Below, piece by piece: positions 3,004-17,567 of a stretch of 64,000 nucleotides of DNA (its first letter is position 1; each line of letters starts with the position of its first letter). The position numbers and the translations under genes are program-made. Source of the stretch: Candidatus Kerfeldbacteria bacterium (GTDB taxonomy: Bacteria; Patescibacteriota; Patescibacteriia; UBA10025; JAHIVO01); NCBI GenBank assembly GCA_016214565.1, contig JACROE010000002.1, positions 119,654 through 183,653 of the forward strand. Direction: 5' to 3'. The notes below the pieces were generated by a model. That model had not been told where the DNA came from and did no database searches. It saw only the letters and a list, made by a program, of their open reading frames with translations.

Positions 3004-3022
3004 AGTAGATCTATTTCAGCGC

Positions 3023-3337
3023 TTAGACGGTCTTGAACCCGACTTCCCCACTACCTGGCGCTTGCGCTTCCTCGATGCTGCCAAACCGATCCTCATATTT
3101 CTTGATATTCTCCTCCAAGGCTTTGTAAATCCGCTTCATGTGTCCAGGACTGGTGATGACTCGCGCAGCCACGATACCGGCGCGCTGATGAGGATACAAA
3201 TTCATGAAGTCAAGCACAAATTCTTCCTTGGTGTGCGAGACACCCATAGCATTTGAATACGCGCCTTTAAGAGTCGTGTCATCAATTTTGATATTAATCT
3301 GCTGCTGGTTTGGTTGGGCTTGCGGTTGTCCATTCAT
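3023..3337 (-). CDS. DUF3467-family small protein
   Basis: About 100 aa; GAYSN...EEFVLDF...P....R...TSPGHMKRIYKALEENIKKYEDRFG pattern matches what I recall for DUF3467. Confidence 0.55.
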   Translation of the reverse strand: MNGQPQAQPNQQQINIKIDDTTLKGAYSNAMGVSHTKEEFVLDFMNLYPHQRAGIVAARVITSPGHMKRIYKALEENIKKYEDRFGSIEEAQAPGSGEVGFKTV

Positions 3338-3512
3338 ATTATTACTTCTTACTATTTACTTATTACTAGTTACTTATCACTACCTACTCAATACTACTAA
3401 CTAATCACTCTGTATATCATATCAGCTCTCGCCGAATTGACAAATCATCCGCTCCCAGGCTAGGGTACAATTAGAACAGAAACCGCTCACCATTAACAAT
3501 CGGAGGCGATAG

Positions 3513-3743
3513 ATGCGATCATTTCGCCGTTCCATCCAGCGCCTGGTTTTGCGCAATAAGCAGTGCATCCTGCACTGTGCCGGTGGCCGTATCGTGCGCA
3601 TTCCAGCTGGCAGCGTGGCAAAAGTCCGCGTCTGCTCCCAGGAGCAAAAGCCCTTTGTCAGATTTGACCAGGGAAAACGCGTGCCCTACATCCATGCGTC
3701 AGAACGCCACGTCCTCTCCTGTTGGGCAACTCATCACCAATGA
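3513..3743 (+). CDS. possible small basic protein (76 aa); coding status uncertain
   Basis: GGAGG 6 nt upstream of ATG; overlaps an alternative 90-aa frame; no homology recognised. Confidence 0.2.
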   Translation: MRSFRRSIQRLVLRNKQCILHCAGGRIVRIPAGSVAKVRVCSQEQKPFVRFDQGKRVPYIHASERHVLSCWATHHQ

Positions 3744-3845
3744 CCACGAGTTGTTGGTTCCTCCACCCCCAGGCGGTTACACTACCCTTTCCGCCTGGGT
3801 TTTCTTTACCCCTGAGGCTCGCTCATGGCCGTGCCTCAACCGGGC

Positions 3846-3874
3846 TTGACAAGGCACGCTCCCTGTGGTAGTAT
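3846..3874 (+). promoter_or_regulatory. σ70-type promoter (TTGACA-17-TAGTAT)
   Basis: Consensus -35 and near-consensus -10 about 40 bp upstream of the 3913 start. Confidence 0.5.
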
Positions 3875-3912
3875 GGTTCGTTCACCACAAAACCAAGAAA
3901 GGAGGTTTCGTT

Positions 3913-4161
3913 ATGAAACCAGTGGTGTGGCTCTTTTTCCTCATCTTGTGCATCATTCCGTTTGCCTTCTTTGGTTGGACTGTCACCGGTCCGTACCAGG
4001 GAATGCTGGCAAACCTCCTGCACCATGGAGCTTTGACCGCTAATTCGCTCTCCCACCTCGGCAACGAGGATGGCCGGCATGCAGCGGTACTGCTCTTCGC
4101 CATTTGGTTCGGTTCTGTCTGCATCATGCAGATCGGCATCGCGCTTAAAAAGGCGCATTAA
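3913..4161 (+). CDS. small membrane protein (82 aa, 2-3 TM helices)
   Basis: AAAGGAGG SD plus ATG at 3913 (the ORF-track start 3865 is upstream of the SD); hydrophobic helices. Confidence 0.55.
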   Translation: MKPVVWLFFLILCIIPFAFFGWTVTGPYQGMLANLLHHGALTANSLSHLGNEDGRHAAVLLFAIWFGSVCIMQIGIALKKAH

Positions 4162-4189
4162 TCATAGGATGATTGCACATCTCTCGTAC

Positions 4190-4219
4190 GGGCTTTCATA
4201 GGATTGAAAGCCCTTTTTT
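4190..4219 (+). terminator. rho-independent terminator
   Basis: GGGCTTTCA-taggat-TGAAAGCCC followed by TTTTTTCTTT. Confidence 0.6.
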
Positions 4220-4486
4220 CTTTACTTTTTTCCCGGGAGTGCTACGCTAATTGTGTCACGCGAATTCCATGAGGGGGAGATCGTGTTGACATTTCACTCA
4301 CTGTGACTTGGGCTGCAGCATTTAACCACATTAGTGGACATTATAGAGAGGACATCACAATCGCTGCAGCCCTCTTTTTTTATTGACAAAATACCCTCGT
4401 TTGCCTAGGATAACGTACTTACCGTTACTATAGAAAATACAAAAAGAACCTACTAATAATAACCTGCGAAATGGTTTGGAGGAATC

Positions 4487-5002
4487 ATGACTACGCTCAA
4501 CAGATCCGCGCATTGGTACGGATTGGATCGATTGTGGATCGACCACGATCGCGACGTACTGATAGTTCAGTCACCTGATGGTCTCGGACAGATGACCGTG
4601 TACATCAACAAGACAGATATCTTGGACGGTACCGCTCGACTCGAAACAGTCAAAGATGGTGATCACCCGCATTTCTTCCACGGTAATACGAATGACGTCC
4701 GTTGTGCGACCATCGTCACAACCGCACAGCGGATTGCTGAAATCGATGAATGGGTCGGCTATGGCGCCGCCTTCCCCTATGAAGAGGTGTGCTACCGCCA
4801 CGGCCGGTATCGCATCAAGATGCCAACATCGAAGATGCCCGATATTCATTTTGAGCCGATTCAGGTCGGCGTCCGCATTCATCTCATTGCCTCAGATGCG
4901 ACGACGGTCACGGTCAACAAAAATGGCACTATCGAACTACGGGGATCGGACGAGCTCCTCCGCAAAATCCGCGAAGGCATGCTGCCCGAAACAACGAGCT
5001 AG
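4487..5002 (+). CDS. hypothetical protein (171 aa, soluble)
   Basis: TTGACA-17-TAGGAT promoter at 4383-4411, SD TGGAGGAA, and hairpin plus T-run at about 5083-5120. Confidence 0.55.
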   Translation: MTTLNRSAHWYGLDRLWIDHDRDVLIVQSPDGLGQMTVYINKTDILDGTARLETVKDGDHPHFFHGNTNDVRCATIVTTAQRIAEIDEWVGYGAAFPYEEVCYRHGRYRIKMPTSKMPDIHFEPIQVGVRIHLIASDATTVTVNKNGTIELRGSDELLRKIREGMLPETTS

Positions 5003-5192
5003 CCAGCCTGCGCTTGGCACCCGCCGCCGATCATTGGCGAACGTCCGTCTCCGCTTGAGACGACACTCGCCTGATTGCACCAAAACCCCGTACACTGACA
5101 TTCGTCGTGTGCGGGGTGATTTATTATTGACAATGACATCAGCAACACGCTACACTGAGATCAGTAAATGTATTAAACATGTTTGGAGGAAC

Positions 5193-5357
5193 ATGGAACA
5201 CGGTCCCCCGTCCTTTTGGCACATTGTTGTCACGATTATCGGAATATTCGCTTGTCTGATACTGCCCTTCTTCAAGATACGCTTGATCCGATGGGCATAT
5301 CTCCATGCCGAACAAACACGGCGAGCCAAACGCGCTCGTCACAAAGCAGTCGGATAG
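5193..5357 (+). CDS. small single-TM protein (54 aa)
   Basis: TTGACA-18-TACACT promoter at 5127-5156, SD GGAGGAA 5 nt before ATG, and a terminator hairpin plus TTTTTT at 5380-5421; it is the 3' part of the long ORF-track frame 4656..5357. Confidence 0.4.
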   Translation: MEHGPPSFWHIVVTIIGIFACLILPFFKIRLIRWAYLHAEQTRRAKRARHKAVG

Positions 5358-5514
5358 CCGCCCCAGGCTATTCCCCAGAAAGCCCGCGCACTTCTCCAAT
5401 TCTTGCGCGGGCTGATTTTTTCTGTCCACGGACTACTTGACGAATCCCGTACCCGACACTAGGATGGGGACAGACAAAAAAACAGTTCTTTTCACATACA
5501 GACTGGAGTGTATT

Positions 5515-6033
5515 ATGATAACGACGTATTTCTTCGATGATGACGAGCCCGTGACCTTTGGTGTCATACTGGGCTTACTGCTCCTGACCGGTATACTGGG
5601 AATTATTGCCATCGTGGTAATCCCCTGTGCCATACTCTGGAGCTGGGTGACTCACCAACCCGAAACTCATTTCAAGCGCAATGCCCCCTACACCGGCGTA
5701 CTCATTTATGGATTGGGGTTATTTCTCTTATTATTCCCCAACCCTCCCATTGCCCTGAATTGGATACGATTGACACTCTTTGGTACTGGCGTCGCTCTCA
5801 CCCTATCCACCGTCTATGCCTGCCGGAACATTAAACTTCGAGTTGCTACGCTGGTGATTATAGTTGGGCTAGAGATTGAAATTGGTCTCAATTTCCTTCA
5901 TCAGTATCATCTCATCGCTGACGAAACAGCCTATCTCCTCGGTGCGCTAACCTACTTCTACCTGATCTACGCCCCCTGGGCACTTATGTTTTTCGGCAAC
6001 CAGTCGAAACAAGAACTGATTACGATACCGTAA
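5515..6033 (+). CDS. hypothetical polytopic membrane protein
   Basis: Very hydrophobic, with more than 5 TM helices; start chosen at the internal ATG after GGAG (the ORF-track start 5437 is also possible); terminator hairpin at 6059-6095. Confidence 0.5.
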   Translation: MITTYFFDDDEPVTFGVILGLLLLTGILGIIAIVVIPCAILWSWVTHQPETHFKRNAPYTGVLIYGLGLFLLLFPNPPIALNWIRLTLFGTGVALTLSTVYACRNIKLRVATLVIIVGLEIEIGLNFLHQYHLIADETAYLLGALTYFYLIYAPWALMFFGNQSKQELITIP

Positions 6034-6106
6034 TCTACCATTTCGTTCACGTCTAACCATCGGCCATTGCACTATTGTAATGGCCGATTATTTATGAATA
6101 ATAAAA

Positions 6107-6134
6107 CCCCATGTCTTGCAGTCGAGACATGGGG
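6107..6134 (-). terminator. rho-independent terminator for the 6162..6686 gene
   Basis: Perfect 10-bp stem CCCCATGTCT/AGACATGGGG followed by TTTTATTATT on the minus strand. Confidence 0.6.
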
Positions 6135-6161
6135 TCGCGCATGATTGGTAGTCATGCGCAA

Positions 6162-6686
6162 TTACAGGAGCAACGAGAGAAAGCAGAAAGCGCCAAGCGG
6201 AAAGTCATTAGCCGCATCAATAGCAGCAGCTGCTATCATCGCGAAATCGGGATTGTCGATAAGCATGACGCCAGTTACGGTGACCGATTGCCCGATCATA
6301 TAGTACAGCCTGCCGGTATCAGTATCCTGACACGTGACAGAGCCATACACGCTGATCACGGAACCAATCTTCACCTTGGCATACTGTTCGTTATCGACGA
6401 CTACAGCGATGACATCCTCTTCAGAAAGCTTGCCCGCTTCAAGTTCCGGCAGCGGCAGGTGCGCAACCACCAGCACGGATCGATTATCCCGCTGGTACAC
6501 ATAGACAACCACCCCATCTGAAAAATTCCTTGTGGAATAATACAGAGATGTCGGACGATCGTCCATGATCTGGCCGAACGTCACGGGCTTTATCGGAGCA
6601 CCGAAGTCATTGCTCAGGCCAACGAAATACAGAATAGTTAGCGCCGCCCACACCCCAATACCCAGGATCAAACATAATCGTTTCAT
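6162..6686 (-). CDS. hypothetical secreted protein with signal peptide or N-terminal anchor
   Basis: Start MKRLCLILGIGVWAALTILYFVG preceded by AAAGAGG; the longer ORF-track start at 6746 is less likely. Confidence 0.5.
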   Translation of the reverse strand: MKRLCLILGIGVWAALTILYFVGLSNDFGAPIKPVTFGQIMDDRPTSLYYSTRNFSDGVVVYVYQRDNRSVLVVAHLPLPELEAGKLSEEDVIAVVVDNEQYAKVKIGSVISVYGSVTCQDTDTGRLYYMIGQSVTVTGVMLIDNPDFAMIAAAAIDAANDFPLGAFCFLSLLL

Positions 6687-6878
6687 ACACAACCTCTTTC
6701 GTTTAACATGTATCAGAATTCGGAATATTCTATTTCTATAGCTCAATTGTAATGTGCGAAAAGAAACAATCCATTATACTCCAAATGGCCGATTTGTCAA
6801 GGCCTCAAGCGTGCATAAAGAAAGCCCGCGTCCTGATACAGGAAGCGCGGGCCGATACAATGTCGTCAGGGTGACGAG

Positions 6879-7382
6879 CTAATTACGATGAAGAAAGTGC
6901 TCTGCTAAGGCTCGAGGATCCGCAAAACGCGGCTCGATATCCTTTCCGGCAAACATGGCACGGAATTTACGACGGACAATACGGTCGGTGACCCCTGCTT
7001 CAGCGGCATAATTGGTAAAGCAGATATCGGTCGACCAGTACGAATCCAGGTACATCACGGGAACGATCATGCGCATACGTTCGCGTGTTGGATGAATGGT
7101 GGTACCCAAATGATGAATCGGGGTAAGAATAAACCCCTCACTCATTTGCTTCAGAGCTCTAGCTAACGTGGCGGGTGATTCCATCTGTGTGGCGACATGA
7201 ATCACCACGTCCAGCTTGTGGCTCATGGGGTAGAGCGCCGCCTTGCCTATGATAGCTGAAAATTCAGCGGTTGCGGGCACGGCGGCCAATTCGGCAAAAA
7301 AGATAGTCAAGTCAGGCGATGCAGCAGTAAAGCTCTGCCGGTATAGGTCAATAGCCTCCTGCATATAATAGTGAAAGTACAT
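6879..7382 (-). CDS. hypothetical protein (167 aa)
   Basis: ORF with a near-perfect 12-bp hairpin terminator downstream at about 6822-6853. Confidence 0.5.
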   Translation of the reverse strand: MYFHYYMQEAIDLYRQSFTAASPDLTIFFAELAAVPATAEFSAIIGKAALYPMSHKLDVVIHVATQMESPATLARALKQMSEGFILTPIHHLGTTIHPTRERMRMIVPVMYLDSYWSTDICFTNYAAEAGVTDRIVRRKFRAMFAGKDIEPRFADPRALAEHFLHRN

Positions 7383-7505
7383 GGGATCCTATCCTCTCTG
7401 TATGTGTGTTTGTGTTTTTATGAGTTGGTCTACCTTAGCAAAAAGGTGTGCCCAAGTCAATCAGCCACCGCTACACTTGACAAGAGAGGTGCAGTGGTGT
7501 ATTCT

Positions 7506-7976
7506 ATGATGTTTAATCAGTTCTTTCATATACAATTTCCGTTCAGCAGTGAAATGCTCAGTAGCTCCGTTACTGGCCGCTTCTCTGCTGAGACGGCAGA
7601 CATTTCTGGAATGACCCAGAAACGTATCCTCAAGACAGGAGATGTCATGGAAAAGATTAATGTAACGCATAGCTTGATGGCGAGCGTCGAATTGACACGC
7701 GCTGCACTGGTGGAGCTCAAGGCTCCGATCACCTTCACACGGATGGACATAATATCCGCCCGGTATAATGATGGTGATACTAATCGATCAGTGTCACTCT
7801 GCATCCATCTCGCGTCTGGAAAAAAAGTCCGGGCGCACTGCATTGTCAACGACAATGATCAACGCTGGGACAACGGAACCTGCGAACTAACCATCAGCAA
7901 TGGCGGTTCGCACACACCAACAGCACGATTCAGTGGTCGAATATTTCATAACGTCTGGGTAGTCGTGGCGCAGTAA
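7506..7976 (+). CDS. hypothetical protein; possibly leaderless
   Basis: TTGACA(7473)-17-TATTCT lies immediately before ATGATG at 7506-7511; the ORF-track start 7371 would include the promoter; terminator at 8003-8042. Confidence 0.4.
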   Translation: MMFNQFFHIQFPFSSEMLSSSVTGRFSAETADISGMTQKRILKTGDVMEKINVTHSLMASVELTRAALVELKAPITFTRMDIISARYNDGDTNRSVSLCIHLASGKKVRAHCIVNDNDQRWDNGTCELTISNGGSHTPTARFSGRIFHNVWVVVAQ

Positions 7977-8002
7977 TTCTGCGACCACGCCCCACCACTG
8001 AT

Positions 8003-8042
8003 AACGCCGGACAGTAGTATCTACTCAATCCGGCGTTTTTTA
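8003..8042 (+). terminator. rho-independent terminator
   Basis: CGCCGGA...TCCGGCG stem followed by TTTTTT. Confidence 0.55.
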
Positions 8043-8191
8043 TTACTCAATTGAATGTACCGAGGCTTGACGAATATCGATTTTTTGTGATACTATCGGT
8101 AATTCCGGCAAACAATAGCTGTCGGAAATTTCACATAAGACCGTTCCTTCGACAACCCATCAACCCCAATAACCACACGGAGGTATTTTTC

Positions 8192-9187
8192 GTGAAACGA
8201 TTTATCATGGCAGTAATCCTGCTTATCATTCCGATTGTGCCGTCACTGAGCACCGCCGGAACCGATGATTCCCTCAAAATCACGTTTGGTCGTGATGAAG
8301 GCCGTGACGCCTTTGAACGCATCATTCGTGAACAGGGATCGTCAATCGCTGCACTTGTCGAGCGCCAACTGGCTGATTCGCTCAGCTGGATCACCGTCAT
8401 CAGCAATTCAGACGGCGTCCGCTATCAGGCGAATCACCGCAAACGCAACACCCTCATGACCGAGGAGCGATCCGTCACCGGCGCGACGCTGCTGGACTAC
8501 TACTGCGCCGACCTGACACGCATTAATGTCGTTCCCCTCAATCATGAAGCCGATACCGGCAATGCAGATCGTTACATCATCTTTATCTTTTCCCGATCCC
8601 ACCCTCGGACCTCTCCGCGTGCCGGCCTGATCGCGCTCAACGGCGCTCGCCTGGAGCCTCCTCGCTTCGATGCGACCTGCCACCCGCCGGCAAAACCGCC
8701 GATGGATCTATCGGACACCTGCTGTCAGGGCACCCAGCTCTGGCTCGGCATCGGCGCATCCTACACGCCACACGAACGCTTAGTTCCCCATGCCCAAGTC
8801 CTCTGGGGCACTGAGGCGGTCCGTATCATCGGTGAAGTTGGTTATTCATTCTATAAGAATGAACGCGTCTTCGCAGATGAGGAATTGGATGTCACCTACC
8901 GGTATGTCTTCGTCGGAATTGCCTGGCGCGCCATCCGCTACAGCCAATTCGACCTGCTCGCTGCCTGGCAGCGCAGCGAAGTCTATTCGACGCATTACGG
9001 ACACTATGCCCGTAAGCTCGAGGGACCCGCAGTCGGCATACGACTGCTGCTCAATGAGCATCTGACGCTGACCGGTCTCTGGACCCCCAGCGAAGAGCAG
9101 CTCCGCGGACGCGACCAAGTCAAGTGGGACAACAACCGATTTTACGTCGGCCTTAACTTCTTCACCGTCATCGCTGGAGGTAAGTGA
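8192..9187 (+). CDS. hypothetical secreted protein (signal peptide; C-terminal half rich in β-strand-like alternating residues)
   Basis: TTGACG-18-TACTAT promoter at 8069-8098; GGAGG 8 nt before GTG 8192; N-terminal hydrophobic signal VKRFIMAVILLIIPIVPSLSTA. Confidence 0.5.
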   Translation: MKRFIMAVILLIIPIVPSLSTAGTDDSLKITFGRDEGRDAFERIIREQGSSIAALVERQLADSLSWITVISNSDGVRYQANHRKRNTLMTEERSVTGATLLDYYCADLTRINVVPLNHEADTGNADRYIIFIFSRSHPRTSPRAGLIALNGARLEPPRFDATCHPPAKPPMDLSDTCCQGTQLWLGIGASYTPHERLVPHAQVLWGTEAVRIIGEVGYSFYKNERVFADEELDVTYRYVFVGIAWRAIRYSQFDLLAAWQRSEVYSTHYGHYARKLEGPAVGIRLLLNEHLTLTGLWTPSEEQLRGRDQVKWDNNRFYVGLNFFTVIAGGK

Positions 9188-9720
9188 TGCATAGAATCAT
9201 GTTTCTTGCCATCATCGGCCTGCTAGCGATACTGGCCAGTTGCGCCGAGAAACTCCCGGCGCCCACGTCGCCTGTCGTAGCCGATACTATCACGGTACAT
9301 GATACGATTCATGACACAACCGCGATACACGATACGACGGAAGTACACGACACCACCACGGTACATGACACTATTTATGACACCACGGTGATTATCGACA
9401 CGATACTGGTTGACTCCTGTACCCTGAAGCCCTCCTGCGGCACACTCGACTGCAAAACCAAGCAGATCAAGTGGTTTATTCCGCTCCAGCCGGGGCAGTA
9501 CACCTTTGACTTTTTCGGCACCACCGAGAAAGACAAGCCCGAGCAGCAGCTCACCGTGCAGATCGGCGCACTGACCTACGATTGGCCGATTGGCACGCAG
9601 AAAGAGCTCTCGCTCGATTACACGACGTCCTCAAGTGGTATCTGGGTGGTGATTACCTCTGATCCGCCGCCCGCTCGCGGGCACGAAATCCAGATCTGTC
9701 TCCAGATCCGGAAAGAATGA
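9184..9720 (+). CDS. lipoprotein with tandem [VI]HDT[TI] repeats
   Basis: Start overlaps the previous stop (ATGA); lipobox LASC; seven or more tandem 5-6-aa HDTT/HDTI units (15-18-nt DNA repeats at 9286-9415). Confidence 0.6.
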   Translation: MMHRIMFLAIIGLLAILASCAEKLPAPTSPVVADTITVHDTIHDTTAIHDTTEVHDTTTVHDTIYDTTVIIDTILVDSCTLKPSCGTLDCKTKQIKWFIPLQPGQYTFDFFGTTEKDKPEQQLTVQIGALTYDWPIGTQKELSLDYTTSSSGIWVVITSDPPPARGHEIQICLQIRKE

Positions 9721-9792
9721 CCAACATCGCTATTTGACTTCAACAAACCTATAACCTACAGGGAAAGCGCCGCCGCTTTCCCTGTTTTTTTA

Positions 9793-9821
9793 TTGACAAA
9801 AAACCGCCGCTCCCATACAAT
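9793..9821 (+). promoter_or_regulatory. consensus σ70 promoter TTGACA-17-TACAAT with an upstream T-tract
   Basis: Exact -35, 17-bp spacer, near-consensus -10; 60 bp upstream of ATG 9886. Confidence 0.6.
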
Positions 9822-9885
9822 GACGCGAAACGAAAACTGCTTTTTGAATTTCGAACTATACACCATATATTGTGGAGGAGGTATC

Positions 9886-10290
9886 ATGACCACGCATACC
9901 AAACTGGGATTGACGGCTCAAGATAAGCCATCAATCTCACTGCAAGACCTGACCAGCGACCAGCGAATCATCGCGGTCACCGGCTGCGACAGTGAAGCGT
10001 GCCTGGTGCACTGCATCGATCGTGCCGACACGCCCGATCAGTACCACTACCGCCAGATTCCCTGCGGCCAGCTCCCGCTGGCACTGGCCGGCGACAAAGC
10101 GAACTGGGCAGGACATATCGGCTGGGATGCTATCCCAAGTCATATGTTCATTATCTCAGCGTCTGATGTGGGTGACATGTTCAATCAGGCGACCAATACC
10201 ATCGTCCTCGGTAAACCGCTGATCGTATTTCCGATGGCCGGCGACCCGGTGACCTTTCCCACGGTCTGCAAACTGGTTCTCCTGTCCTAA
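9886..10290 (+). CDS. hypothetical protein (134 aa)
   Basis: SD GGAGGAGG before ATG 9886 (the ORF-track start 9793 overlaps the promoter); terminator hairpin at 10323-10359. Confidence 0.5.
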   Translation: MTTHTKLGLTAQDKPSISLQDLTSDQRIIAVTGCDSEACLVHCIDRADTPDQYHYRQIPCGQLPLALAGDKANWAGHIGWDAIPSHMFIISASDVGDMFNQATNTIVLGKPLIVFPMAGDPVTFPTVCKLVLLS

Positions 10291-10356
10291 TCGCCTCACT
10301 TCGCGTGATGCACATCAGCTTCCCCCGGTGTTCTCATCAGAACATCGGGGTGATTT

Positions 10357-10376
10357 TTATTGACGCGCGTCAATAA
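10357..10376. promoter_or_regulatory. perfect 20-bp palindrome TTATTGACGCGCGTCAATAA (candidate operator, or divergent -35 elements)
   Basis: Exact reverse-complement symmetry, immediately after the terminator T-run. Confidence 0.4.
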
Positions 10377-10660
10377 TACGCGTATCCTTTTGATACTTGT
10401 TCTTTCCCACCCGTGCCTACGCCGCACACCCCATCGGACCCCCAGGCGGTTGTCCAGGCGCACCAGCACGCTCACGTGCCGGATACTTGTACTCGAGACC
10501 TCGGGTACAACACTATTGGCGGGGATTCGTTAGGATTTCCTATTGCGACCTGTCTTTTCTTCGGAGAAGGCAGGTCAATTTTTATCTATGAGATCCTGAA
10601 CCAAGTTCAGGATGAGGGGTGTTGTTATTGTCCTCATGCTGAATTTATTTCAGCATCTCC

Positions 10661-10748
10661 TGTCATCGCGAGCCTCGAGTAACTACGAGAGGCGTGGCGA
10701 TCCGCCGGATTGCCGCGTCACTCACTCCGTTCGCTCCTCGCAATGACA
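10661..10748 (-). repeat. dispersed palindromic repeat, copy A (inverted relative to copies B and C)
   Basis: Reverse complement is TGTCATTGCGAGGAGCGAACGGAGTGAGTGACG...GATCGCCACGCCTCTCGTAGTTACTCGAGGCTCGCGATGACA; 3'-terminal ~42 nt nearly identical to copy C. Confidence 0.7.
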
Positions 10749-10750
10749 GA

Positions 10751-11230
10751 CTAGAGTCCCAAGACTTTACTCAGTATCGGATACGAAAAATACGCCAACA
10801 CCTTGAACTCGGGGTCAGCTAATTCAATCATCTCCATGTCCGACTTCTCAATCAGTTTGAATCCCGACTGGCCTAAATACTTCTCCTTAAACGCTGGGTA
10901 ATCACGTATAGTAAAATCTGCATCCCCACGCTCTTTTCGTGCCGGGTCTGGTTTGCGTACCTTCACTATTCGCAGCGGCCCAGCCACCGTCTCAATCGCC
11001 TGCTCCAATAGATATACATGACCCATCTTGGTTCCTTTAACCACTCTGCCCATCCCCGCAGCTACTTTGTCCATTTCCTGATATTCCACCTCCGACTGCG
11101 CAAAAATACACGCGTAATTCACTGGCACGCCATTCTCTGCCGTGTGCTTATCTTTTAGCGCTACGGCATCCTTAACAATAGAAAAAATTGTGCTAATGAA
11201 AGACACGCTACTCTGTTTTATCATTATCAC
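10751..11230 (-). CDS. hypothetical protein (159 aa)
   Basis: ORF; its start overlaps the stop of the upstream gene; normal GC content. Confidence 0.45.
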   Translation of the reverse strand: MIMIKQSSVSFISTIFSIVKDAVALKDKHTAENGVPVNYACIFAQSEVEYQEMDKVAAGMGRVVKGTKMGHVYLLEQAIETVAGPLRIVKVRKPDPARKERGDADFTIRDYPAFKEKYLGQSGFKLIEKSDMEMIELADPEFKVLAYFSYPILSKVLGL

Positions 11231-11903
11231 TCTTAAGGTTACTTATAAATCTCCTGGTATTTGACTCTAAATCGTTGTCATTATTTCTAAATGTCATTTG
11301 ATGCACACCACAATTTGAACAGGCTCCAGTCAATGGCGAGATATACCCCTTCCCACAACTGGTACAAAATTCATAGTCACCCATAAGCACCCCAGCATTC
11401 GACATACGGTTATTTGCACTAAACGTTGTCCCGAGTCCGCTGACCGTAGGACTTATTGTAGCGGCACTATACATGCTATGCACTAATTCATTCCTCAATT
11501 TCTTAACCTCCTCCAGAGATCTCGCAAGCTCATCTTCCTTCCTTGCCTTTTTCTTACCCTTTTTTGTCAATTCTTTCTCCCGTTCTTCGAGCTTATGGAT
11601 TAAATCATTTACTCGATCAAAGGCTGAATAAACTTCCTGAAAATATTTATCACTTTTTTGTTTAGTTTCACCATATAGTTTGCTGTATTCAGCTTTCGCT
11701 TTTTTAATTTCTTCAGCGGCCAGTAGATATTGTCTCTCGGCTTCCTTCTTTATCTCGCGTAACTCTTTCAATTCATCTACTGCTTCCTTGCGCAACTTAA
11801 AAGTAATAAAGCCAATAAACGCTAGCACCACGGCTAATAAAATACCATAAATTGTAGCCACAGCACTTATCCAGCTAATTAAATTCCCTACTAAATCTTC
11901 CAT
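11208..11903 (-). CDS. membrane-anchored coiled-coil protein with C-terminal zinc ribbon
   Basis: N-terminal TM segment (ISAVATIYGILLAVVLAFIGFITF), a long K/E-rich coiled coil, and C-terminal CTSCG...CSNCG; AT-rich codon usage. Confidence 0.5.
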   Translation of the reverse strand: MEDLVGNLISWISAVATIYGILLAVVLAFIGFITFKLRKEAVDELKELREIKKEAERQYLLAAEEIKKAKAEYSKLYGETKQKSDKYFQEVYSAFDRVNDLIHKLEEREKELTKKGKKKARKEDELARSLEEVKKLRNELVHSMYSAATISPTVSGLGTTFSANNRMSNAGVLMGDYEFCTSCGKGYISPLTGACSNCGVHQMTFRNNDNDLESNTRRFISNLKSDNDKTE

Positions 11904-12018
11904 ATTATTAACATTAGCAATTATCTAATATTTTCAGTATACCAAAAATTCCCCACTCCCGCCTCTTGAAGATAGTTTGAGGCATATTTATTAAACTTAT
12001 AGAGATCGCTGAAAATTA

Positions 12019-12540
12019 CTAAGCTTCTCTCCACTCAATGCTGGGATCGTTAAAACTCCCGTCCCAATTGACTGATACCATAAATTTTTTTTGGTGCCCT
12101 TGCTTTACATTAAAGTGTATTTCTAACTGAGTCACACCTGGGCTCACTTTTGTCGACTCATCATTGGATCTAAAAACGGCATTGCTTAAACGAAGTTGGT
12201 AGCCATTTGCAATCTGGAAAAGATTGCCTATATCTAACCATCGCGCTTGGTGCATTGGAATATCATTCAACCTTTGATCGCCCTGCCGAAATTGATTATC
12301 CATCCACCAAAGCGGAGATATAATTACTGTTCTTAATTTATCGCCCGGATCAATAATCTTTACCAAATCTGCTTCAATATCATTCGCGTTATTACTCCCT
12401 TCATTTTTTACTTCCACTCTAAGAACTTTTAATTCTCCATTGCCTTGAACATCAACTGATTTGTTGATTATTTTGATATCAGGCTTAAAAATATTTTTCT
12501 TAGCTGAATCCCCAAAAATATTTCCTAGTATACTCCACAT
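12019..12540 (-). CDS. hypothetical protein (173 aa), AT-rich
   Basis: ORF 56 bp downstream of dnaK; no signal peptide and no recognised family. Confidence 0.45.
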   Translation of the reverse strand: MWSILGNIFGDSAKKNIFKPDIKIINKSVDVQGNGELKVLRVEVKNEGSNNANDIEADLVKIIDPGDKLRTVIISPLWWMDNQFRQGDQRLNDIPMHQARWLDIGNLFQIANGYQLRLSNAVFRSNDESTKVSPGVTQLEIHFNVKQGHQKKFMVSVNWDGSFNDPSIEWREA

Positions 12541-12596
12541 ATTTTTCCTATATCAACCAAGAAGCGGGTCCTGAATAGAACCCGCTCTTGTTTTAA

Positions 12597-14525
12597 TTAC
12601 TTTTTAACATCCTCGTACTCGGCGTCGACTGGTCCTTTGTCATTCTTCGGACCGTCTTTCGGCGCTTCGCCTTGTGGATTGGCTCCTGGCTGCCCCTGGG
12701 CGCCCGGTTGTCCCTGTGGCGGCTTCTTATCAGCGTACATGGCTTGGCCAATCTTTTGTACGGTCTGATTCAGATCTTCCACGGCTTTCTTGATGGCCGC
12801 GTCATCATCTTTGTCCTTCACGTCTTTGACCGCTTTGATCTTTTCTTCCACTTCTTTCTTCACGTCGTCTTTGATCTTATCGCCTGCGTCTTTGATAGCT
12901 TTCTCCGCGGTGTAGATAAGGGTCTCGGCCATATTGCGCGTGTCGATGAGGTCTTTCTTCTTCTTATCCTCTGCCGCGTGGGCCTGGGCATCCTGTTTCA
13001 TTTTCTCCACGTCTTCCTTGGAGAGCCCCGATGACGCAGTGATAGTAATGGATTGCTCCTGGCCGGAGGCCTTGTCTTTTGCTTTCACATTCAGGATACC
13101 ATTGGCATCAATGTCGAATGACACTTCCACCTGCGGGACGCCGCGCGGTGATGGCGGAATGCCGGAGAGGATGAAGCGACCCAGTGTTTTATTGTCCGAG
13201 GCCATGGGGCGTTCGCCCTGGAGCACGTGGACTTCCACGGACGTTTGATTGTCAGCGGCTGTGGAGAATACTTGTGATTTGGTTGTCGGGATGGTGGTAT
13301 TGCGTTCGATCAATGGAGTGGAGACACCGCCGAGGGTTTCAATGCCGAGCGTCAACGGAGTGACGTCGAGTAACAATACATCTTTCACATCGCCCTGGAG
13401 GACACCGGCCTGCACCGCAGCACCAACGGCGACCACTTCGTCAGGATTCACACCGATGTGGGGTTTCTTGCCAAAGAATTGCTCCACAGTCTCGAGTACT
13501 TTCGGCATACGGGTCATACCACCAACCATGATCACCTCTTGGATATCTTTGGTTTCTACTTTCGCATCCGCTAATGCTTTCTTGACTGGTTCAATGGTTT
13601 TCTCGATCAAGTCTGCAACGAGTGACTCAAGTTTTGCGCGAGTCAGTTTGAGATTCATGTGTTTCGGGCCACTGGCGTCAGTGGTGATGAAGGGCAGATT
13701 GATTTCCGTTTCATTGGTCGTGGACAATTCAATCTTCGCCTTTTCCGCAGCTTCCTTGAGGCGCTGGAGTGCCATCTGGTCATTACCCAGGTTGATACCT
13801 TGGTCTTTATTGAATTCATCAACCAACCAGTCGATAATGCGCTTGTCAAAATCGTCACCACCCAGGTGGGTGTCGCCATTGGTTGATTTCACTTCCACGG
13901 TGTCCTCTGAGATGTCCAGGATGGAAATATCAAACGTACCACCGCCCAGATCGTAGACTGCTACTTGCTGGTTCTTTTTCTTATCAAATCCGTAAGCGAG
14001 CGCAGCGGCAGTTGGTTCATTGATGATACGGCGCACTTTCAGTCCAGCGATTTCACCCGCGTCCTTGGTGGCTTGGCGCTGTGAGTCATCGAAATAGGCA
14101 GGCACGGTAATCACCGCTTCTTCGATTTTCTCGCCCAGTTTCGCTTCAGCGTCAGCTTTCATTTTCTGGAGAATCATGGCCGAGGCTTCCTGCGGAGTGT
14201 AGAGCTTGTCCACCATTTTCACTTTGACGCCCTCGCCTGCCTGCTCGATGATGTAGGGCATGGTTTTCACGTCATGCTGCACTTCGTCATCGTTCCAGTG
14301 ACGGCCAATCAGGCGCTTCACCGAGAAGACGGTATTCTGGTGATTGGTGACGGCTTGGCGCTTGGCCACTTGGCCGACCAGGCGTTCGCCAGTCTTGGAA
14401 ATAGCCACCACTGATGGCGTGGTGCGATTGCCTTCTTTATTTTCGAGGACCTTCGGCTCACCGCCTTCGATGATGGCCATGCAGGAGTTGGTGGTGCCGA
14501 GATCGATTCCGAGTATTTTTGACAT
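12597..14525 (-). CDS. dnaK: molecular chaperone DnaK (Hsp70)
   Basis: [16 protein letters not shown] and [11 protein letters not shown]-type motifs; 642 aa. Confidence 0.97.
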
Positions 14526-14571
14526 AGTTGTTTGGTTAATTGCTTTCTAAAAATTGTTAGTTATTTTTGTT

Positions 14572-14654
14572 AGTCATTGCGAGGAACGAACGTAGTGAGT
14601 GACGAAGCAATCTCTTCAGATCGCCACACCCCGCAGACGGGGCTCGCGATGACA
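14572..14654 (+). repeat. dispersed palindromic repeat, copy B
   Basis: AGTCATTGCGAGGAACGAACGTAGTGAGTGACGAAGCAATC...GATCGCCAC...GGCTCGCGATGACA, immediately upstream of dnaK. Confidence 0.7.
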
Positions 14655-14662
14655 GGCTATTT

Positions 14663-15031
14663 TTACTTAATAAAATTATCCATCGGGCCTTCAAGTAATT
14701 GATGTAGTGCCAACACATCCTCGCTCTTCACCGGACGATTTCCCTGGAACCGCAGTACTTCATTCTGCTTCAGATCGGTCAGGGCACTGGCGACTTTCAG
14801 TCCAAATGACCCCAGCGCGATCAAGGACATCGCGCCGCTCTGGCACACTGCGCATTTGATATACATCAGCGTAGCGCCGTCCAGCTCTTGGAGCACCTCG
14901 ATGCGATTGAAATCATACATCGTCTGACAGACGGGGCAGCGTGCGTCGATGCGGATGCGTTCCGATCGCCCATTGCCCGGCGTGCCGGCACCAGAGAAGT
15001 GATTGTTTGAAAAATGATTATTAATTGCCAT
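14663..15031 (-). CDS. small zinc-ribbon protein (CPVC...CAVC)
   Basis: 122 aa with two CxxC pairs about 24 aa apart; directly upstream of copy B and dnaK. Confidence 0.45.
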   Translation of the reverse strand: MAINNHFSNNHFSGAGTPGNGRSERIRIDARCPVCQTMYDFNRIEVLQELDGATLMYIKCAVCQSGAMSLIALGSFGLKVASALTDLKQNEVLRFQGNRPVKSEDVLALHQLLEGPMDNFIK

Positions 15032-15115
15032 GTACTTGTCAAAACGTATTATTTACTCTAGAGTGATGAACATTGAACATTCGTTTGGGTTTTTTGTACA
15101 TTCCAGAGGAGGACC

Positions 15116-15410
15116 TATGTGCACCATATCCATGGTTACCGATGAATTCTGGCGGACTCAAGTGAAGGGCGTGGAAGTCTTGATCTCCCGTGTGTTTACG
15201 GAGGGGGAGGCGAAAATTATCGCCGAATACCTTGCCGCTGACGGTGAGAAGATGCATTGCGGCAAACCAGTCGCTGAGCGAATCTCGATACCACGTATCG
15301 TATCGTCTGCGCAGCCTGTCTGCGTTTTCATCAATTTCCCCGCGACCAGCGAGCATGGTCGCCAGATCCAGATCCGGAAGAATTCAGCAGAAGCTGAATA
15401 CGTCGTCTGA
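15116..15410 (+). CDS. hypothetical protein (98 aa)
   Basis: SD GAGGAGG before ATG 15116; stem-loop plus ATTTATTTT at about 15438-15478. Confidence 0.4.
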
Positions 15411-15592
15411 CTCCAGTCGACCCCGACCGTTGTCCCCGAGAGCCCTAAGGTTTACCCTTTGCGGCTCTCATTTATTTTCCATGAAATGTTCAATGGGTTT
15501 CCCCGGTCCGGATATGAAGTGTGCGCTTCCCTATCCGCACCGCGGTGTACCAGCCCCGCACTCAGCGAAAACTGATACTGCCGCTCAAAATA

Positions 15593-16015
15593 CTATTTGA
15601 CGTTAACTTTGATTGATTTCGGTTTGACTTCTTCTGCTTTCGGGATGACAATTTTCAGCATGCCATTCTCGAAGTCGGCCTTGGCATCGCCGCCTTTGAC
15701 ATGGGTCGGCAGTGCCACCGCGCGATAGAAACTACCGGCGCGCACTTCTTTGCGATAATAATTTTTGTCATCCACTTCGCTCTTGTGCTCCATAGAGCCC
15801 TCAATCTTCAAGACGTCATTTTCAATAGTGATTTCGACGTTCTTGGGATCGACGCCGGCTAACGGTGTTTCCACGATGACATTATCTTTGTCCTGGTAGA
15901 TGTCCACTGCTGGAGTGAACGAGTGAATATTTGATGCGACCATTGGCATGTCGTTGAAAAATTTATCGAATTCAGACATGTCCATGAATGGACGCCATTG
16001 CATTAAACCTCTCAT
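15593..16015 (-). CDS. Hsp20/α-crystallin family small heat-shock protein
   Basis: α-crystallin domain with a C-terminal GMLKIVIPKAEE-type strand. Confidence 0.85.
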   Translation of the reverse strand: MRGLMQWRPFMDMSEFDKFFNDMPMVASNIHSFTPAVDIYQDKDNVIVETPLAGVDPKNVEITIENDVLKIEGSMEHKSEVDDKNYYRKEVRAGSFYRAVALPTHVKGGDAKADFENGMLKIVIPKAEEVKPKSIKVNVK

Positions 16016-16067
16016 AATGTTGTCCTTTCATGCCCGTGTTGGGCTTAATGATTAGTGATTCAATAGT

Positions 16068-16157
16068 TGTCATTGCGAGGAAGAGCAGTATGCGATGACG
16101 AAGCAATCCCTAGGAGATCGCCACGCCTCTCATAGTTACTCGAGGCTCGCGATGACA
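16068..16157 (+). repeat. dispersed palindromic repeat, copy C
   Basis: TGTCATTGCGAGGAAGAGCAGTATGCGATGACGAAGCAATCC...GATCGCCACGCCTCTCATAGTTACTCGAGGCTCGCGATGACA. Confidence 0.7.
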
Positions 16158-16173
16158 ATAGTATTGTTAATGT

Positions 16174-16222
16174 TGTCATTCTGAAGGAGCGCACGCGACT
16201 GAAGAATCTCTATGACGTCAGC
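16174..16222 (+). repeat. degenerate partial copy of the same repeat
   Basis: TGTCATTCTGAAGGAGCG...GAAGAATCTCTATGACG resembles the element termini. Confidence 0.35.
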
Positions 16223-16260
16223 TATACGGAACCGAGATGCTTCGGCAGGCTCAGCATCGC

Positions 16261-16776
16261 CTAGGCGGCGACTTTTACCTTCGCCGGTTCCAATACTTTC
16301 CCGTACAAGGTATAGCCTGACTTCACTTCTTCAAAAACGACATCAGCTTTGAAACCGTCTTTCTTTTCCTTGGCCACTGCTTCGTGCATCTCAGGGTTAA
16401 ATACTTCACCGACGGTTTTGATTTCTTCAATGCCCAACTCTTTCAGAAAATCCGTGAATTGCTTTTTAATATGTGCAAGGCCGGTGATCCAATCTGACTT
16501 TTCATATTCAGTCGGGATATGGTTCCAGGCCAGTTTGAAATTATCGAAAATCGGCAATATCTGGAGTATCAGGCCGGCGTTGGCGTATTGAACCATCTCT
16601 TGTTCTTTCTTTTCCGATTCGCGCTTGAGATTGAGATAATCTGCTTTCGCCCGTTTCCAGCCGTTCATGTATTCTTCCATTTTTTCATGCGCGAGTTTGA
16701 GCTCGGCAGAAATCTTTTCCAAATCATGATGGATCGGTGTTGGCTGCTGCTCTTCTGTTTTTTTATGATCGTGCAT
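16261..16776 (-). CDS. grpE: nucleotide exchange factor GrpE
   Basis: GrpE coiled-coil plus β-domain, with conserved DNF, HEAV and YTL.G.VLRPA motifs. Confidence 0.85.
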   Translation of the reverse strand: MHDHKKTEEQQPTPIHHDLEKISAELKLAHEKMEEYMNGWKRAKADYLNLKRESEKKEQEMVQYANAGLILQILPIFDNFKLAWNHIPTEYEKSDWITGLAHIKKQFTDFLKELGIEEIKTVGEVFNPEMHEAVAKEKKDGFKADVVFEEVKSGYTLYGKVLEPAKVKVAA

Positions 16777-16782
16777 AGTATG

Positions 16783-17490
16783 TTACGCGGTTGAAAATAA
16801 TTTCTTTGTATAATTAACCAGGGCAAAGGCGTCTTCATAATCCATCCGCATCGGTCCGAGTACGCCGATCAAGCCGGGCTCGGTGCCTTTCAGCTGATAC
16901 GGACTAAATATCGTACTGCATTCTTTGCCAAATGGATTTTCTGATCCCACGAGAATGCGCGGGGTGTCAGTCACTTTCACGAAGAGCTCCGCAATCACGT
17001 CATCCAAATGATCCACAATCGCTGACAAATGCCGCACCATATCAATGTCCGCAAATTCCGGGTGGCTGAATAAATTTGATAAACCAGTATAGTAGACGTT
17101 GTCGCGAGAAAAGCCGACAAAAACCGCGTTCTGTGATATTTCGGCAAGCGTGCGTGCGACATTCTTAACGCAAACCTGTGTATTTGCTTGGTTTTGTTTG
17201 TTAAGCGCCTTCTCCAGCAGCGTCATCTGTGGCGCAGCAGGCTGCTTTTCTACGAGGAAATTCTCAATGTAGTACTGCCAGCCCTTTTCCGTGGGGATGC
17301 GGCCAGCAGAGGTGTGAGGCTGAAAAATCAGGCCTTCTGACTCTAGGTCAGCCATTTCATTCCGAACGGTAGCCGATGATAATTCGAGTTGATACTTATC
17401 CACAAGAGCCTGAGAAGCAACGGGTTTTCCATTTCCATGGACGTGCTCCTTGATAATTGCGCTAAGTATAGCTCTTTTTCGTTCCTTCAT
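16783..17490 (-). CDS. hrcA: heat-inducible transcription repressor HrcA (short form)
   Basis: N-terminal winged helix (ERKRAILSAIIKEHV...) and a CIRCE element immediately upstream. Confidence 0.8.
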   Translation of the reverse strand: MKERKRAILSAIIKEHVHGNGKPVASQALVDKYQLELSSATVRNEMADLESEGLIFQPHTSAGRIPTEKGWQYYIENFLVEKQPAAPQMTLLEKALNKQNQANTQVCVKNVARTLAEISQNAVFVGFSRDNVYYTGLSNLFSHPEFADIDMVRHLSAIVDHLDDVIAELFVKVTDTPRILVGSENPFGKECSTIFSPYQLKGTEPGLIGVLGPMRMDYEDAFALVNYTKKLFSTA

Positions 17491-17505: not shown

Positions 17506-17544
17506 ATTATAAATCATTTAGCACTCTCACGTCAAGAGTGCTAA
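17506..17544 (-). promoter_or_regulatory. CIRCE operator TTAGCACTC-N9-GAGTGCTAA (17518-17544) overlapping a TTGACG-17-TTATAAT promoter
   Basis: Perfect 9-9 inverted repeat with a 9-nt spacer, 28 bp upstream of the hrcA ATG; the -35 lies inside the spacer. Confidence 0.8.
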
Positions 17545-17567
17545 AGTCGTTCTTTATTACTTCTAGA

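Follow-up and report, generated by a model that had tools for sequence, protein, structure and literature searches.

Why are several copies of one palindromic repeat gathered around the heat-shock genes of a member of the candidate phyla radiation (CPR), and do they regulate those genes? The 64,000-nucleotide stretch of Candidatus Kerfeldbacteria DNA analysed here (contig JACROE010000002.1; hereafter the window) carries three full palindromic copies, A, B and C, of 83-90 bp, and a shorter relative, D, in and beside a probable operon with hrcA, grpE, hsp20 and dnaK. A first-pass annotation, made from the letters and their reading frames, had placed A, B and C at the coordinates where we find them, with D beside C, and had proposed a structured RNA role for them in the heat-shock response. 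Our analysis leads to a different answer. We think it likely that A to C are inverted dimers, and D a singleton, of repetitive extragenic palindromic (REP) units of the CGTC/TGTC-tagged superfamily, and that these units are selfish or commensal elements colonising the spacers of the operon. The anatomy of the units, their distribution, the lack of target-site duplications and the turnover of units among relatives carry this reading.

Paired hairpin units within each copy

Each full copy consists of two hairpin units that face each other with their tags outward, which gives a palindrome of 83-90 bp. In copies A to C a unit reads, in order, a tag TGTC (once AGTC), an AT-first stem (ATTGC or ATCGC), GAG, a variable inner hairpin, CG(A/T)(A/G), the closing GCAAT or GCGAT, and a 3-nt tail. 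Copy A (10661-10748, minus strand) is an inverted dimer of two TGTC-tagged REP-type units, one at 10706-10748 on the minus strand (stem ATTGC/GCAAT) and one at 10661-10704 on the plus strand (stem ATCGC/GCGAT); it starts 2 nt past the stop codon of an open reading frame (ORF) at 10751-11230 on the minus strand. Copy B (14572-14654, plus strand) is a dimer whose 5' unit, from position 14572, is tagged AGTC and whose 3' unit, at 14617-14654 and read on the minus strand, is tagged TGTC and has the inner hairpin CCCCG/CGGGG. It lies 8 nt past the stop of the ORF at 14663-15031 and 46 nt before the dnaK ATG. In copy C (16068-16157, plus strand), both units of the dimer are tagged TGTC; the first occupies 16068-16110 (plus strand) and the second 16114-16157 (minus strand), and the copy precedes the hsp20 ATG by 52 nt. 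For copy D, annotated as a degenerate copy at 16174-16222, the start stands and the end does not, as a complete single unit stops at 16210 (16174-16210, plus strand). This unit belongs to a sister family, TGTC-ATTCTGAAG...CTGAAGAAT-CTC with stem ATTCT/AGAAT, and both the unit scan and the alignment identify it as different from, but related to, the sequence of A to C.

The shared sequence features reported in the first-pass annotation were recovered. The common termini, GTCATTGCGAGG...CTCGCGATGAC, are found in A, B and C alike, as are the internal blocks GACGAAGCAATC (GACGCGGCAATC in A) and GATCGCCAC, and the near-identity of A and C over about 42 nt was returned by a repeat search as 42 nt at 98%. 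The half of A that does not match C was aligned with B over 40 nt at 90% by the repeat search and by alignment, so that A is best described as a mosaic with a B-like 5' unit and a C-like 3' unit. The number of termini in the window is not above chance (a 12-mer terminus with 2 mismatches gave 8 matches, compared to 6.2 expected), and six of the eight matches are the paired ends of A, B and C. When the terminus GTCA[TC]NNNGA[GAC] was required together with its reverse complement 30-130 nt away, only A, B and C were found in the whole 64-kb window.

Further units occur singly. Two are tagged CCTC: one at 10590-10617 on the minus strand (CCTC-ATCCTGAAC-TTG-GTTCAGGAT-CTC), which has a 9-bp stem with no mismatch, and one at 10632-10659 on the plus strand (CCTC-ATGCTGAAT-TTA-TTTCAGCAT-CTC), which directly abuts copy A. 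An identical unit to the latter is present at 13338-13365 in L244, one of the relatives described below. Together with copy A, the two CCTC units make up a four-unit cluster. All window units in the scan read tag-AT...AT-tail, with the tag TGTC in five dimer units and D, AGTC in one unit and CCTC in the two single units, and with the tails CTC, CCC, CCG and CTG. In addition, a candidate degenerate unit that lacks a tag, assigned with low confidence, lies at 16234-16260 on the minus strand (ATGCT-GAGCCTGCCGA-AGCAT-CTC), where it abuts the grpE stop; it resembles the unit TGTCATGCTGAG...CGAAGCATCTC of the relative L245.

We used covariation to determine which structure is conserved. In a sample of viral contigs chosen on the outer ends alone, a T/C variant of the outer pentamer shifted together with the inner pentamer of the same half in 12 cases and never with the opposite half alone (four-pentamer states CGTA in 7 elements, TACG in 3 and CGCG in 2). 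A second scan, for GTCATNNNGAGCGAAGCGANNNATC, left both triplets free. The triplets were Watson-Crick complementary in 96 of 105 distinct matches, with eight different pairs represented (TCT/AGA 39, CCT/AGG 24, TCC/GGA 11, CCC/GGG 8, GTT/AAC 7, ACT/AGT 3, GCT/AGC 3, TTC/GAA 1), and a sister pattern added two more (TGC/GCA 99, CGC/GCG 3), for ten triplet types in all; from family to family, the three stem pairs that follow AT thus differ through compensatory changes. Given a chance rate of 1/64, complementarity at this level has p ~1e-161. Covariation within the halves and complementarity of the free triplets show the conserved structure to be the single unit rather than the long palindrome. 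A long single hairpin or four-way junction was considered as the selected structure and ruled out, since covariation is confined to the halves.

A CGTC-type repeat in many phyla

A CGTC-tagged REP superfamily has been described by Di Nocera, De Gregorio and Rocco (2013, BMC Genomics 14:522, PMC3733652). In that description, CGTC REPs have an unpaired tag, CGTC, with the variants TGTC and CCTC, an AT-first stem and a 3-nt tail that is mostly CCA. They occur mostly as inverted dimers, often heterodimers, in spacers whose flanking ORFs run in one direction or converge, close to the 3' end of the upstream ORF; G-T pairs turn up occasionally, no dedicated transposase is described, and there are several families per genome (PMC3733652). 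All of these traits are present in our elements, that is, the tag and its variants, the AT-first stem, the 3-nt tail, the dimers, the 3'-end placement and the lack of an associated transposase, together with occasional G-T pairs and coexisting families in one genome. Across the family as a whole the tag is CGTC in 182 units (65%), TGTC in 85 (31%) and another sequence in 11; the tail is CCA in 141 (58%) and CTC in 55 (23%), with fewer than 10 for each of the others; and the median element length is 84 bp.

A stem of 8-9 bp and a loop of 4-5 nt are listed for the four published CGTC families (Table 1, PMC3733652); according to the authors, classes with bulges or unusual features were missed by their catalogue. 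The CCTC units within 10590-10659, with a 9-bp stem and a 3-nt loop, come near the published range, and the unit at 10590-10617 reads as 8 bp with a 5-nt loop if its innermost C-G pair is counted as loop. Simple relatives of the form GTCAT-NNN-GAG-CGAAG-CGA-N'N'N'-ATC fit the 8+5 plan only if tandem G.A/A.G is counted as paired. The superfamily takes in dRS3 of Neisseria (= CGTC-1) and RPE-4 and RPE-6 of Rickettsia, and its published host range covers 5 phyla, mostly alphaproteobacteria (PMC3733652).

The host range found here is considerably wider than the published one, and the guess in the first-pass annotation that the family is widespread proved right. We scanned viral contigs with the pattern GTCATYGCGAG-N40-70-CTCGCRATGAC and GTDB species genomes with a heterodimer-specific pattern; counts from both collections are to be read as "at least". 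Among the matches listed from these two scans, hosts belong to most bacterial phyla and include alpha-, beta- and gamma-proteobacteria, Opitutae/Verrucomicrobiota, several CPR lineages, Nitrospinota, Nitrospirae, Gemmatimonadota, Omnitrophota, Elusimicrobia, Zixibacteria, Calditrichaceae, Melioribacteraceae, Syntrophomonas, Clostridiales and Spirochaetaceae; Firmicutes are among the phyla represented. The isolates among them include Thiobacillus denitrificans, Halomonas garicola and Hankyongella. The GC content of the host loci ranges from 30 to 71%. Megaplasmids of Novosphingobium resinovorum carry 32 and 2 copies and were the sole find in PLSDB, in a search that has low sensitivity for a 92-nt query. 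The CGTC-tagged superfamily is thereby extended to CPR/Patescibacteria and to many phyla, with strong covariation in the unit hairpin and with turnover at fixed spacers.

Other searches gave no matches. The inner hairpin common to A and C had 0 matches in the metagenome scan, Rfam 15 gave no match for the copies at the gathering threshold or at E up to 10 and none for 12 canonical-copy loci, and the literal sequences GTCATTGCGAG and CTCGCAATGAC and the inner blocks were found in the literature only in unrelated primers. One distant locus deserves mention: in L123 (832-889), a metagenome-assembled genome labelled uncultured Gammaproteobacteria, the 5' unit GTCATTGCGAGGAACGAACGCAGTGAGTGACGAAGCAATC is one base off the 5' unit of copy B. 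As this host is nominally of another phylum, the near-match points either to a unit lineage that has spread horizontally or to an error in binning.

A second known system is REPIN-RAYT (Bertels and Rainey 2011; Nunvar et al. 2010, 2013), which has a GTAG or GGTG tag and a cognate gene for a REP-associated tyrosine transposase (RAYT), a Y1 HUH transposase. Like REPINs, our copies are intergenic inverted doublets of REP hairpins that form one long palindrome, with a conserved unpaired tetranucleotide beside the stem. Unlike them, they carry the tag (C/T)GTC, and they belong to a sequence family found across many phyla, in contrast to GTAG REP classes, which are usually species- or clade-specific. 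No RAYT gene was seen in the window or beside the fetched copies, and no Y1_Tnp domain in the window ORFs. With the wrong tag and no RAYT at these loci, REPIN-RAYT in the strict sense was rejected.

Replacement of units at orthologous spacers

The operon runs hrcA-grpE-hsp20-orf-dnaK, with D and C in the grpE-hsp20 spacer, B upstream of dnaK and A at a convergent junction further downstream. Relatives with the same synteny comprise L242-244 (GrpE 82-84% identical), L245-247 (73%) and L248 (95%). Directly past the grpE stop (position 1), L248 and L242 carry a ATCCTGAA/TTCAGGAT unit where the window has the low-confidence ATGCT/AGCAT unit. In the grpE-hsp20 spacer (position 2), L245 has a full dimer of the ATTCT family, the 3' unit of which is orthologous to D (near-identical over alignment columns 88-135); at the site of window copy C, both L242-244 and L245 have a CCTC-ATCCCGAA hairpin, and C itself is absent from L242 and L245. 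Upstream of dnaK (position 3), the element is TGTCGCCTCGAC...GTCGAGATGACA in L242-244 and TGTCATCCTGAG...CAGAGTGACA in L245, and conservation of the dnaK leader is confined to its final ~40 nt, downstream of B. Past the orthologue of ORF 10751-11230 (position 4), L245 has a dimer of two other families. L244 also has an ATCGC/ATTGC dimer of the same subfamily as the window copies at a different locus; a unit of this dimer equals the 3' unit of B save for a compensatory change in the inner hairpin (CTCCG/CGGAG compared to CCCCG/CGGGG). Logan contigs that encode identical proteins matched the window at 100% and showed no presence/absence polymorphism.

The orthologous spacers of relatives thus hold other REP families, or none of this one, which goes against the structured RNA role first proposed. 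Different REP families at the same four spacer positions amount to dispersal and turnover, not to a conserved leader RNA with a regulatory function.

Placement across the wider family is in keeping with published CGTC REPs. The 122 classifiable copies lie in tandem (92), convergent (24) and divergent (6) spacers, compared to 419, 115 and 101 background spacers, respectively, and are depleted in divergent spacers (p = 1.6e-4). The median distance past the upstream stop codon is 38 nt, compared to 2 nt and 8 nt for A and B in the window. With 9 copies co-oriented with the upstream gene and 6 opposed to it, orientation is not clearly biased. The elements are non-coding and non-autonomous; they disperse without target-site duplication or a linked gene, and most come to lie shortly after a stop codon, where the flanking genes are co-directional or convergent. 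Here, they have colonised the few roomy spacers of hrcA-grpE-hsp20-orf-dnaK and the convergent junction downstream of it. Dispersal may proceed via single-stranded hairpin DNA or through gene-conversion replacement of existing units.

A number of points weigh against this account of the copies as colonising CGTC-type repeats. The units of A to D differ from the four published CGTC families in having a 5-bp AT stem (5 perfect outer pairs) followed by 15-22 nt between the arms, which hold an internal loop (GAG / CGAA-like) and an inserted hairpin of 5-7 bp. The element is therefore probably a superfamily member whose family or variant is not in that catalogue, and it is set apart from CGTC-1 to CGTC-4 by description, not by consensus sequences. 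Copy C has the 5-bp direct repeat ATAGT on either side. Evidence from the source organism comes from the 64-kb window of one genome, and the placement statistics rest on crude ORF calls, under which 54 of 247 copies overlapped a called ORF. Finally, all units of the window fall between 10.6 and 16.2 kb (three points within <=5.5 kb have p ~0.02 under uniform placement), and all four orthologous sites in relatives hold some REP. This clustering and this constant occupation could mean that a hairpin is needed there.

Such a need is the substance of the alternative that survives best, which we regard as possible, at clearly lower probability than colonisation: the units would be RNA punctuation, exapted in a position-specific manner, where a stable hairpin is required past certain stop codons (for 3'-end formation, processing, stability or as a partial transcription barrier) and any REP family can serve. 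In E. coli, REP/BIME (bacterial interspersed mosaic element) sequences such as the malE-malF REP stabilise mRNA and punctuate operons internally, and our copies resemble them as stable hairpins between cistrons of one operon, just past stop codons; the sequence family is unrelated, however, and RNA effects are carried over to our elements by analogy only. The presence of some REP unit at each of the four orthologous positions, from different families in the window, L242-244, L245 and L248, is as expected from punctuation, as are the strong folds, the 2-8 nt between stops and elements in the window (the 38-nt median family-wide included), and the absence of an intrinsic terminator-like site on the operon strand. 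However, relatives bear REP units in many other spacers too, there is no preferred orientation (A is inverted compared to B and C), and reinsertion or replacement at existing REPs, as at hot spots, explains the same pattern equally well without any function.

Spread of the units between loci

Colonisation by REP units leaves the question of how they move. A bolder proposal, somewhat less probable still than punctuation, is that units are installed or replaced at fixed post-stop positions in a tag-directed manner without duplication (homing or gene conversion), by an enzyme that is encoded in, or supplied to, even CPR genomes of ~1 Mb. The conserved tag and inner motif, set beside stems that covary freely over more than 15 phyla, would then reflect recognition by one ancient and widely shared protein, and the operon copies would be kept for a benefit to the mRNA. 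No dedicated transposase is known for CGTC REPs (PMC3733652), and the presence of such repeats in very small CPR genomes narrows the candidate host factors for movement. Small CPR genomes also make phylogenetic profiling of a mobilising factor practical.

Neighbouring genes did not point to such a factor. No neighbour gene recurred in 120 genome loci with 8-kb flanks, and at the viral loci only structural genes of gene transfer agents (GTA) and phages recurred, a result of collection bias. In the window, no transposase or integrase Pfam domain was found in the scanned ORFs of >=150 aa, which cover all non-overlapping ones.

These results also bear on the possibility that the copies act at the DNA level, as insertion or recombination targets or as protein-binding sites that mark the borders of variable gene blocks. 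Known repeats of this kind are dRS3 of Neisseria, used in phage integration, and E. coli REPs, bound by gyrase. CGTC-1 repeats are dRS3, relatives differ in the genes found downstream of dnaK and between dnaK and dnaJ, and the REP cluster around A sits at a convergent junction within ~10.6 kb of ORFs that have no Pfam match, all as would be expected of border sites. With no integrase or IS110-like gene in the window ORFs scanned and no known protein partner, we consider a role of this type improbable.

The first-pass annotation had already doubted that the repeat is a passive miniature inverted-repeat transposable element (MITE), and our data agree. A classical MITE would be an internally deleted insertion sequence whose 11-13 bp terminal inverted repeats are recognised by a DDE transposase. 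Bacterial MITEs such as Correia, Nezha and Chunjie are likewise dispersed short elements without coding capacity, whose inverted ends form a hairpin in the transcript; the ends of our copies resemble terminal inverted repeats, and the TGTC subfamily has TG...CA termini. However, no target-site duplication was found in 236 copies at boundary offsets of 0-3 and k = 3-9, the rate being at the permutation level (for example, at k = 5, 0.4% observed compared to 0.1% permuted). In the flanks, composition departs from background only in two pyrimidines to the left and two purines to the right. About 65% of units begin with CGTC and not with TG, covariation acts inside each half and not between the two ends (the halves being two independently covarying units), and neither a transposase, among the neighbours or in the window, nor a related autonomous insertion sequence was found. 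The direct repeat around C was considered as a target-site duplication and is treated as chance, since the family-wide search for duplications was negative. Therefore, we regard a classical MITE as very unlikely.

Probable transcription and folding of the operon copies

The heat-shock genes beside the copies were named correctly in the first-pass annotation; all of them lie on the minus strand, however. They are hrcA (16783-17490), grpE (16261-16776), hsp20 (15593-16015) and dnaK (12597-14525), each identified by a Pfam match, with the ORF at 14663-15031 between hsp20 and dnaK, also on the minus strand. Together they form a probable operon, hrcA-grpE-hsp20-orf-dnaK (12597-17490, minus strand), which contains B, C and D and whose gene order is kept in relatives. 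After dnaK follow three ORFs that have no Pfam match, reaching 10751, next to copy A. Directly upstream of hrcA, at 17506-17545 on the minus strand, we found an operator of the type called CIRCE (controlling inverted repeat of chaperone expression) together with a promoter-like site. The CIRCE element, TTAGCACTC-N9-GAGTGCTAA at 17518-17544, has 0 mismatches and is the sole match in the window, and it overlaps a sigma-70-like promoter, TTGACG-18-TATAAT, in which 11 of 12 promoter positions agree. As the CIRCE at hrcA is the only one in the window, separate operators for dnaK and hsp20 are lacking.

From hrcA to dnaK, the search of the minus strand gave no terminator-like site. With this, and with the CIRCE and promoter-like sites upstream of hrcA, the claim that B, C and D lie inside a heat-shock transcript is very probably right; judged from these sequence signals, the three copies are probably co-transcribed within a single HrcA-controlled operon. 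Orientation relative to the genes is mixed, with A inverted relative to B and C, which speaks against a heat-shock-specific role.

The fold of each copy is strong. Free energies range from -31.6 to -47.5 kcal/mol, with z from -1.9 to -5.7; copy A gives -42.8 and -47.5 kcal/mol on its two strands. Transcription yields the more stable strand of C, whereas for B it yields the less stable one. When the leaders are folded whole, the elements stay self-contained, and neither the minimum-energy nor the centroid structure has pairs in the dnaK start region. For hsp20, there is a weak pairing between the CUCCUUC of D and the Shine-Dalgarno (SD) region in the minimum-energy fold, which is reduced in the centroid. 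None of the copies is followed by a T-run, and an intrinsic terminator was rejected on this ground. As the hairpins are stable and self-contained, the dnaK start is unpaired and T-runs are absent, neither a thermometer nor an intrinsic terminator is supported.

RNA thermometers such as ROSE and fourU do lie, as B and C would, in the 5' leaders of heat-shock genes such as hsp20 and dnaK. Unlike them, our copies leave the dnaK SD and AUG free and offer hsp20 a weak pairing with D at most. They are also far more stable than thermometers, stand mostly beside unrelated genes, and are not conserved in the orthologous leaders. A thermometer was accordingly ruled unsupported: the hairpins are highly stable and stop 46-52 nt short of the ATGs. 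A link to chaperones is also missing from the wider family. When the DnaK, GrpE, Hsp20 and HrcA proteins of the window were compared by tblastn with 240 family loci, a single locus had any of their homologues nearby (a dnaK), which is about the chance level. A cis-regulatory RNA specific to heat shock, acting in the leaders of dnaK and hsp20 as a thermometer or attenuator, although it is suggested by the place of B and C within a CIRCE-controlled transcript and by the pairing of D with the hsp20 SD, is the least probable of the explanations considered, as hairpins of -32 to -48 kcal/mol are far more stable than anything expected to melt within a few degrees, what is conserved of the dnaK leader lies downstream of B, and Rfam holds no match. 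An attractive but unsupported heat-shock riboregulator is thereby removed.

On the reading of the copies as REP units, a generic REP-like effect on mRNA processing or stability is possible by analogy. B, C and D would be transcribed in the operon mRNA and fold into very stable hairpins, which could block 3'-exonucleases or serve as RNase processing sites and so uncouple the stability of operon segments, as REPs do in E. coli. Any such effect would be independent of temperature and not specific to heat-shock genes.

The copies also affect gene calling. The first-pass annotation described translations of the repeat as common "hypothetical proteins", which two protein-database searches failed to confirm: the 53-aa ORF over B returned no candidates, and the 54-aa ORF over a canonical copy returned nothing at E <= 0.001. 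One spurious ORF was found in L244, where a called 100-aa gene (12307-12609), with a product that includes ...CLSSRAPSAERGDL...IAASPTAPRNDK, runs through a REP dimer at 12476-12565. In annotation, the units should be masked as REP-type repeats, as they break gene calls on short-read assemblies and seed spurious ORFs such as this one.

Other features of the window

The window has a GC content of 47.9%, and GrpE finds its best named homologues in Candidatus Buchananbacteria and Patescibacteria (68-70% identity), which places the host in the CPR. The dnaJ gene (785-1885) is separated from dnaK (12597-14525) by ~10.6 kb (1945-12540) of ORFs on both strands that have no Pfam match. Gene content downstream of dnaK varies among the relatives L242, L244 (in which a HEPN gene is present) and L245. 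The segment 1945-12540 looks like a variable island inside a classic hrcA-grpE-dnaK-dnaJ arrangement.

The 236-nt spacer downstream of hsp20 (15357-15592, minus strand) has a strong RNA fold (-95.7 kcal/mol, z = -5.0). It aligns poorly with the spacers of relatives and has no Rfam match and no REP unit. Its coding assignment is ambiguous, as a Logan gene call puts a 124-aa ORF on the opposite strand.

Two tandem hairpins resembling intrinsic terminators, at 10323-10350 and 10547-10576 on the plus strand, have stems of 12-13 bp followed by T-runs and close a block of plus-strand genes immediately ahead of the REP units clustered around A. Within the ORF at 9184-9720, which has no Pfam match, lies an imperfect tandem direct repeat (9277-9403; 61 nt, 75% identity, period 66). 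A 46-nt direct repeat, at 4370-4415 and 9780-9825 (76% identity), includes TTTTTTTATTGACAAAA and lies upstream of plus-strand ORFs that begin at 4487 and 9793; it may be a shared promoter region.

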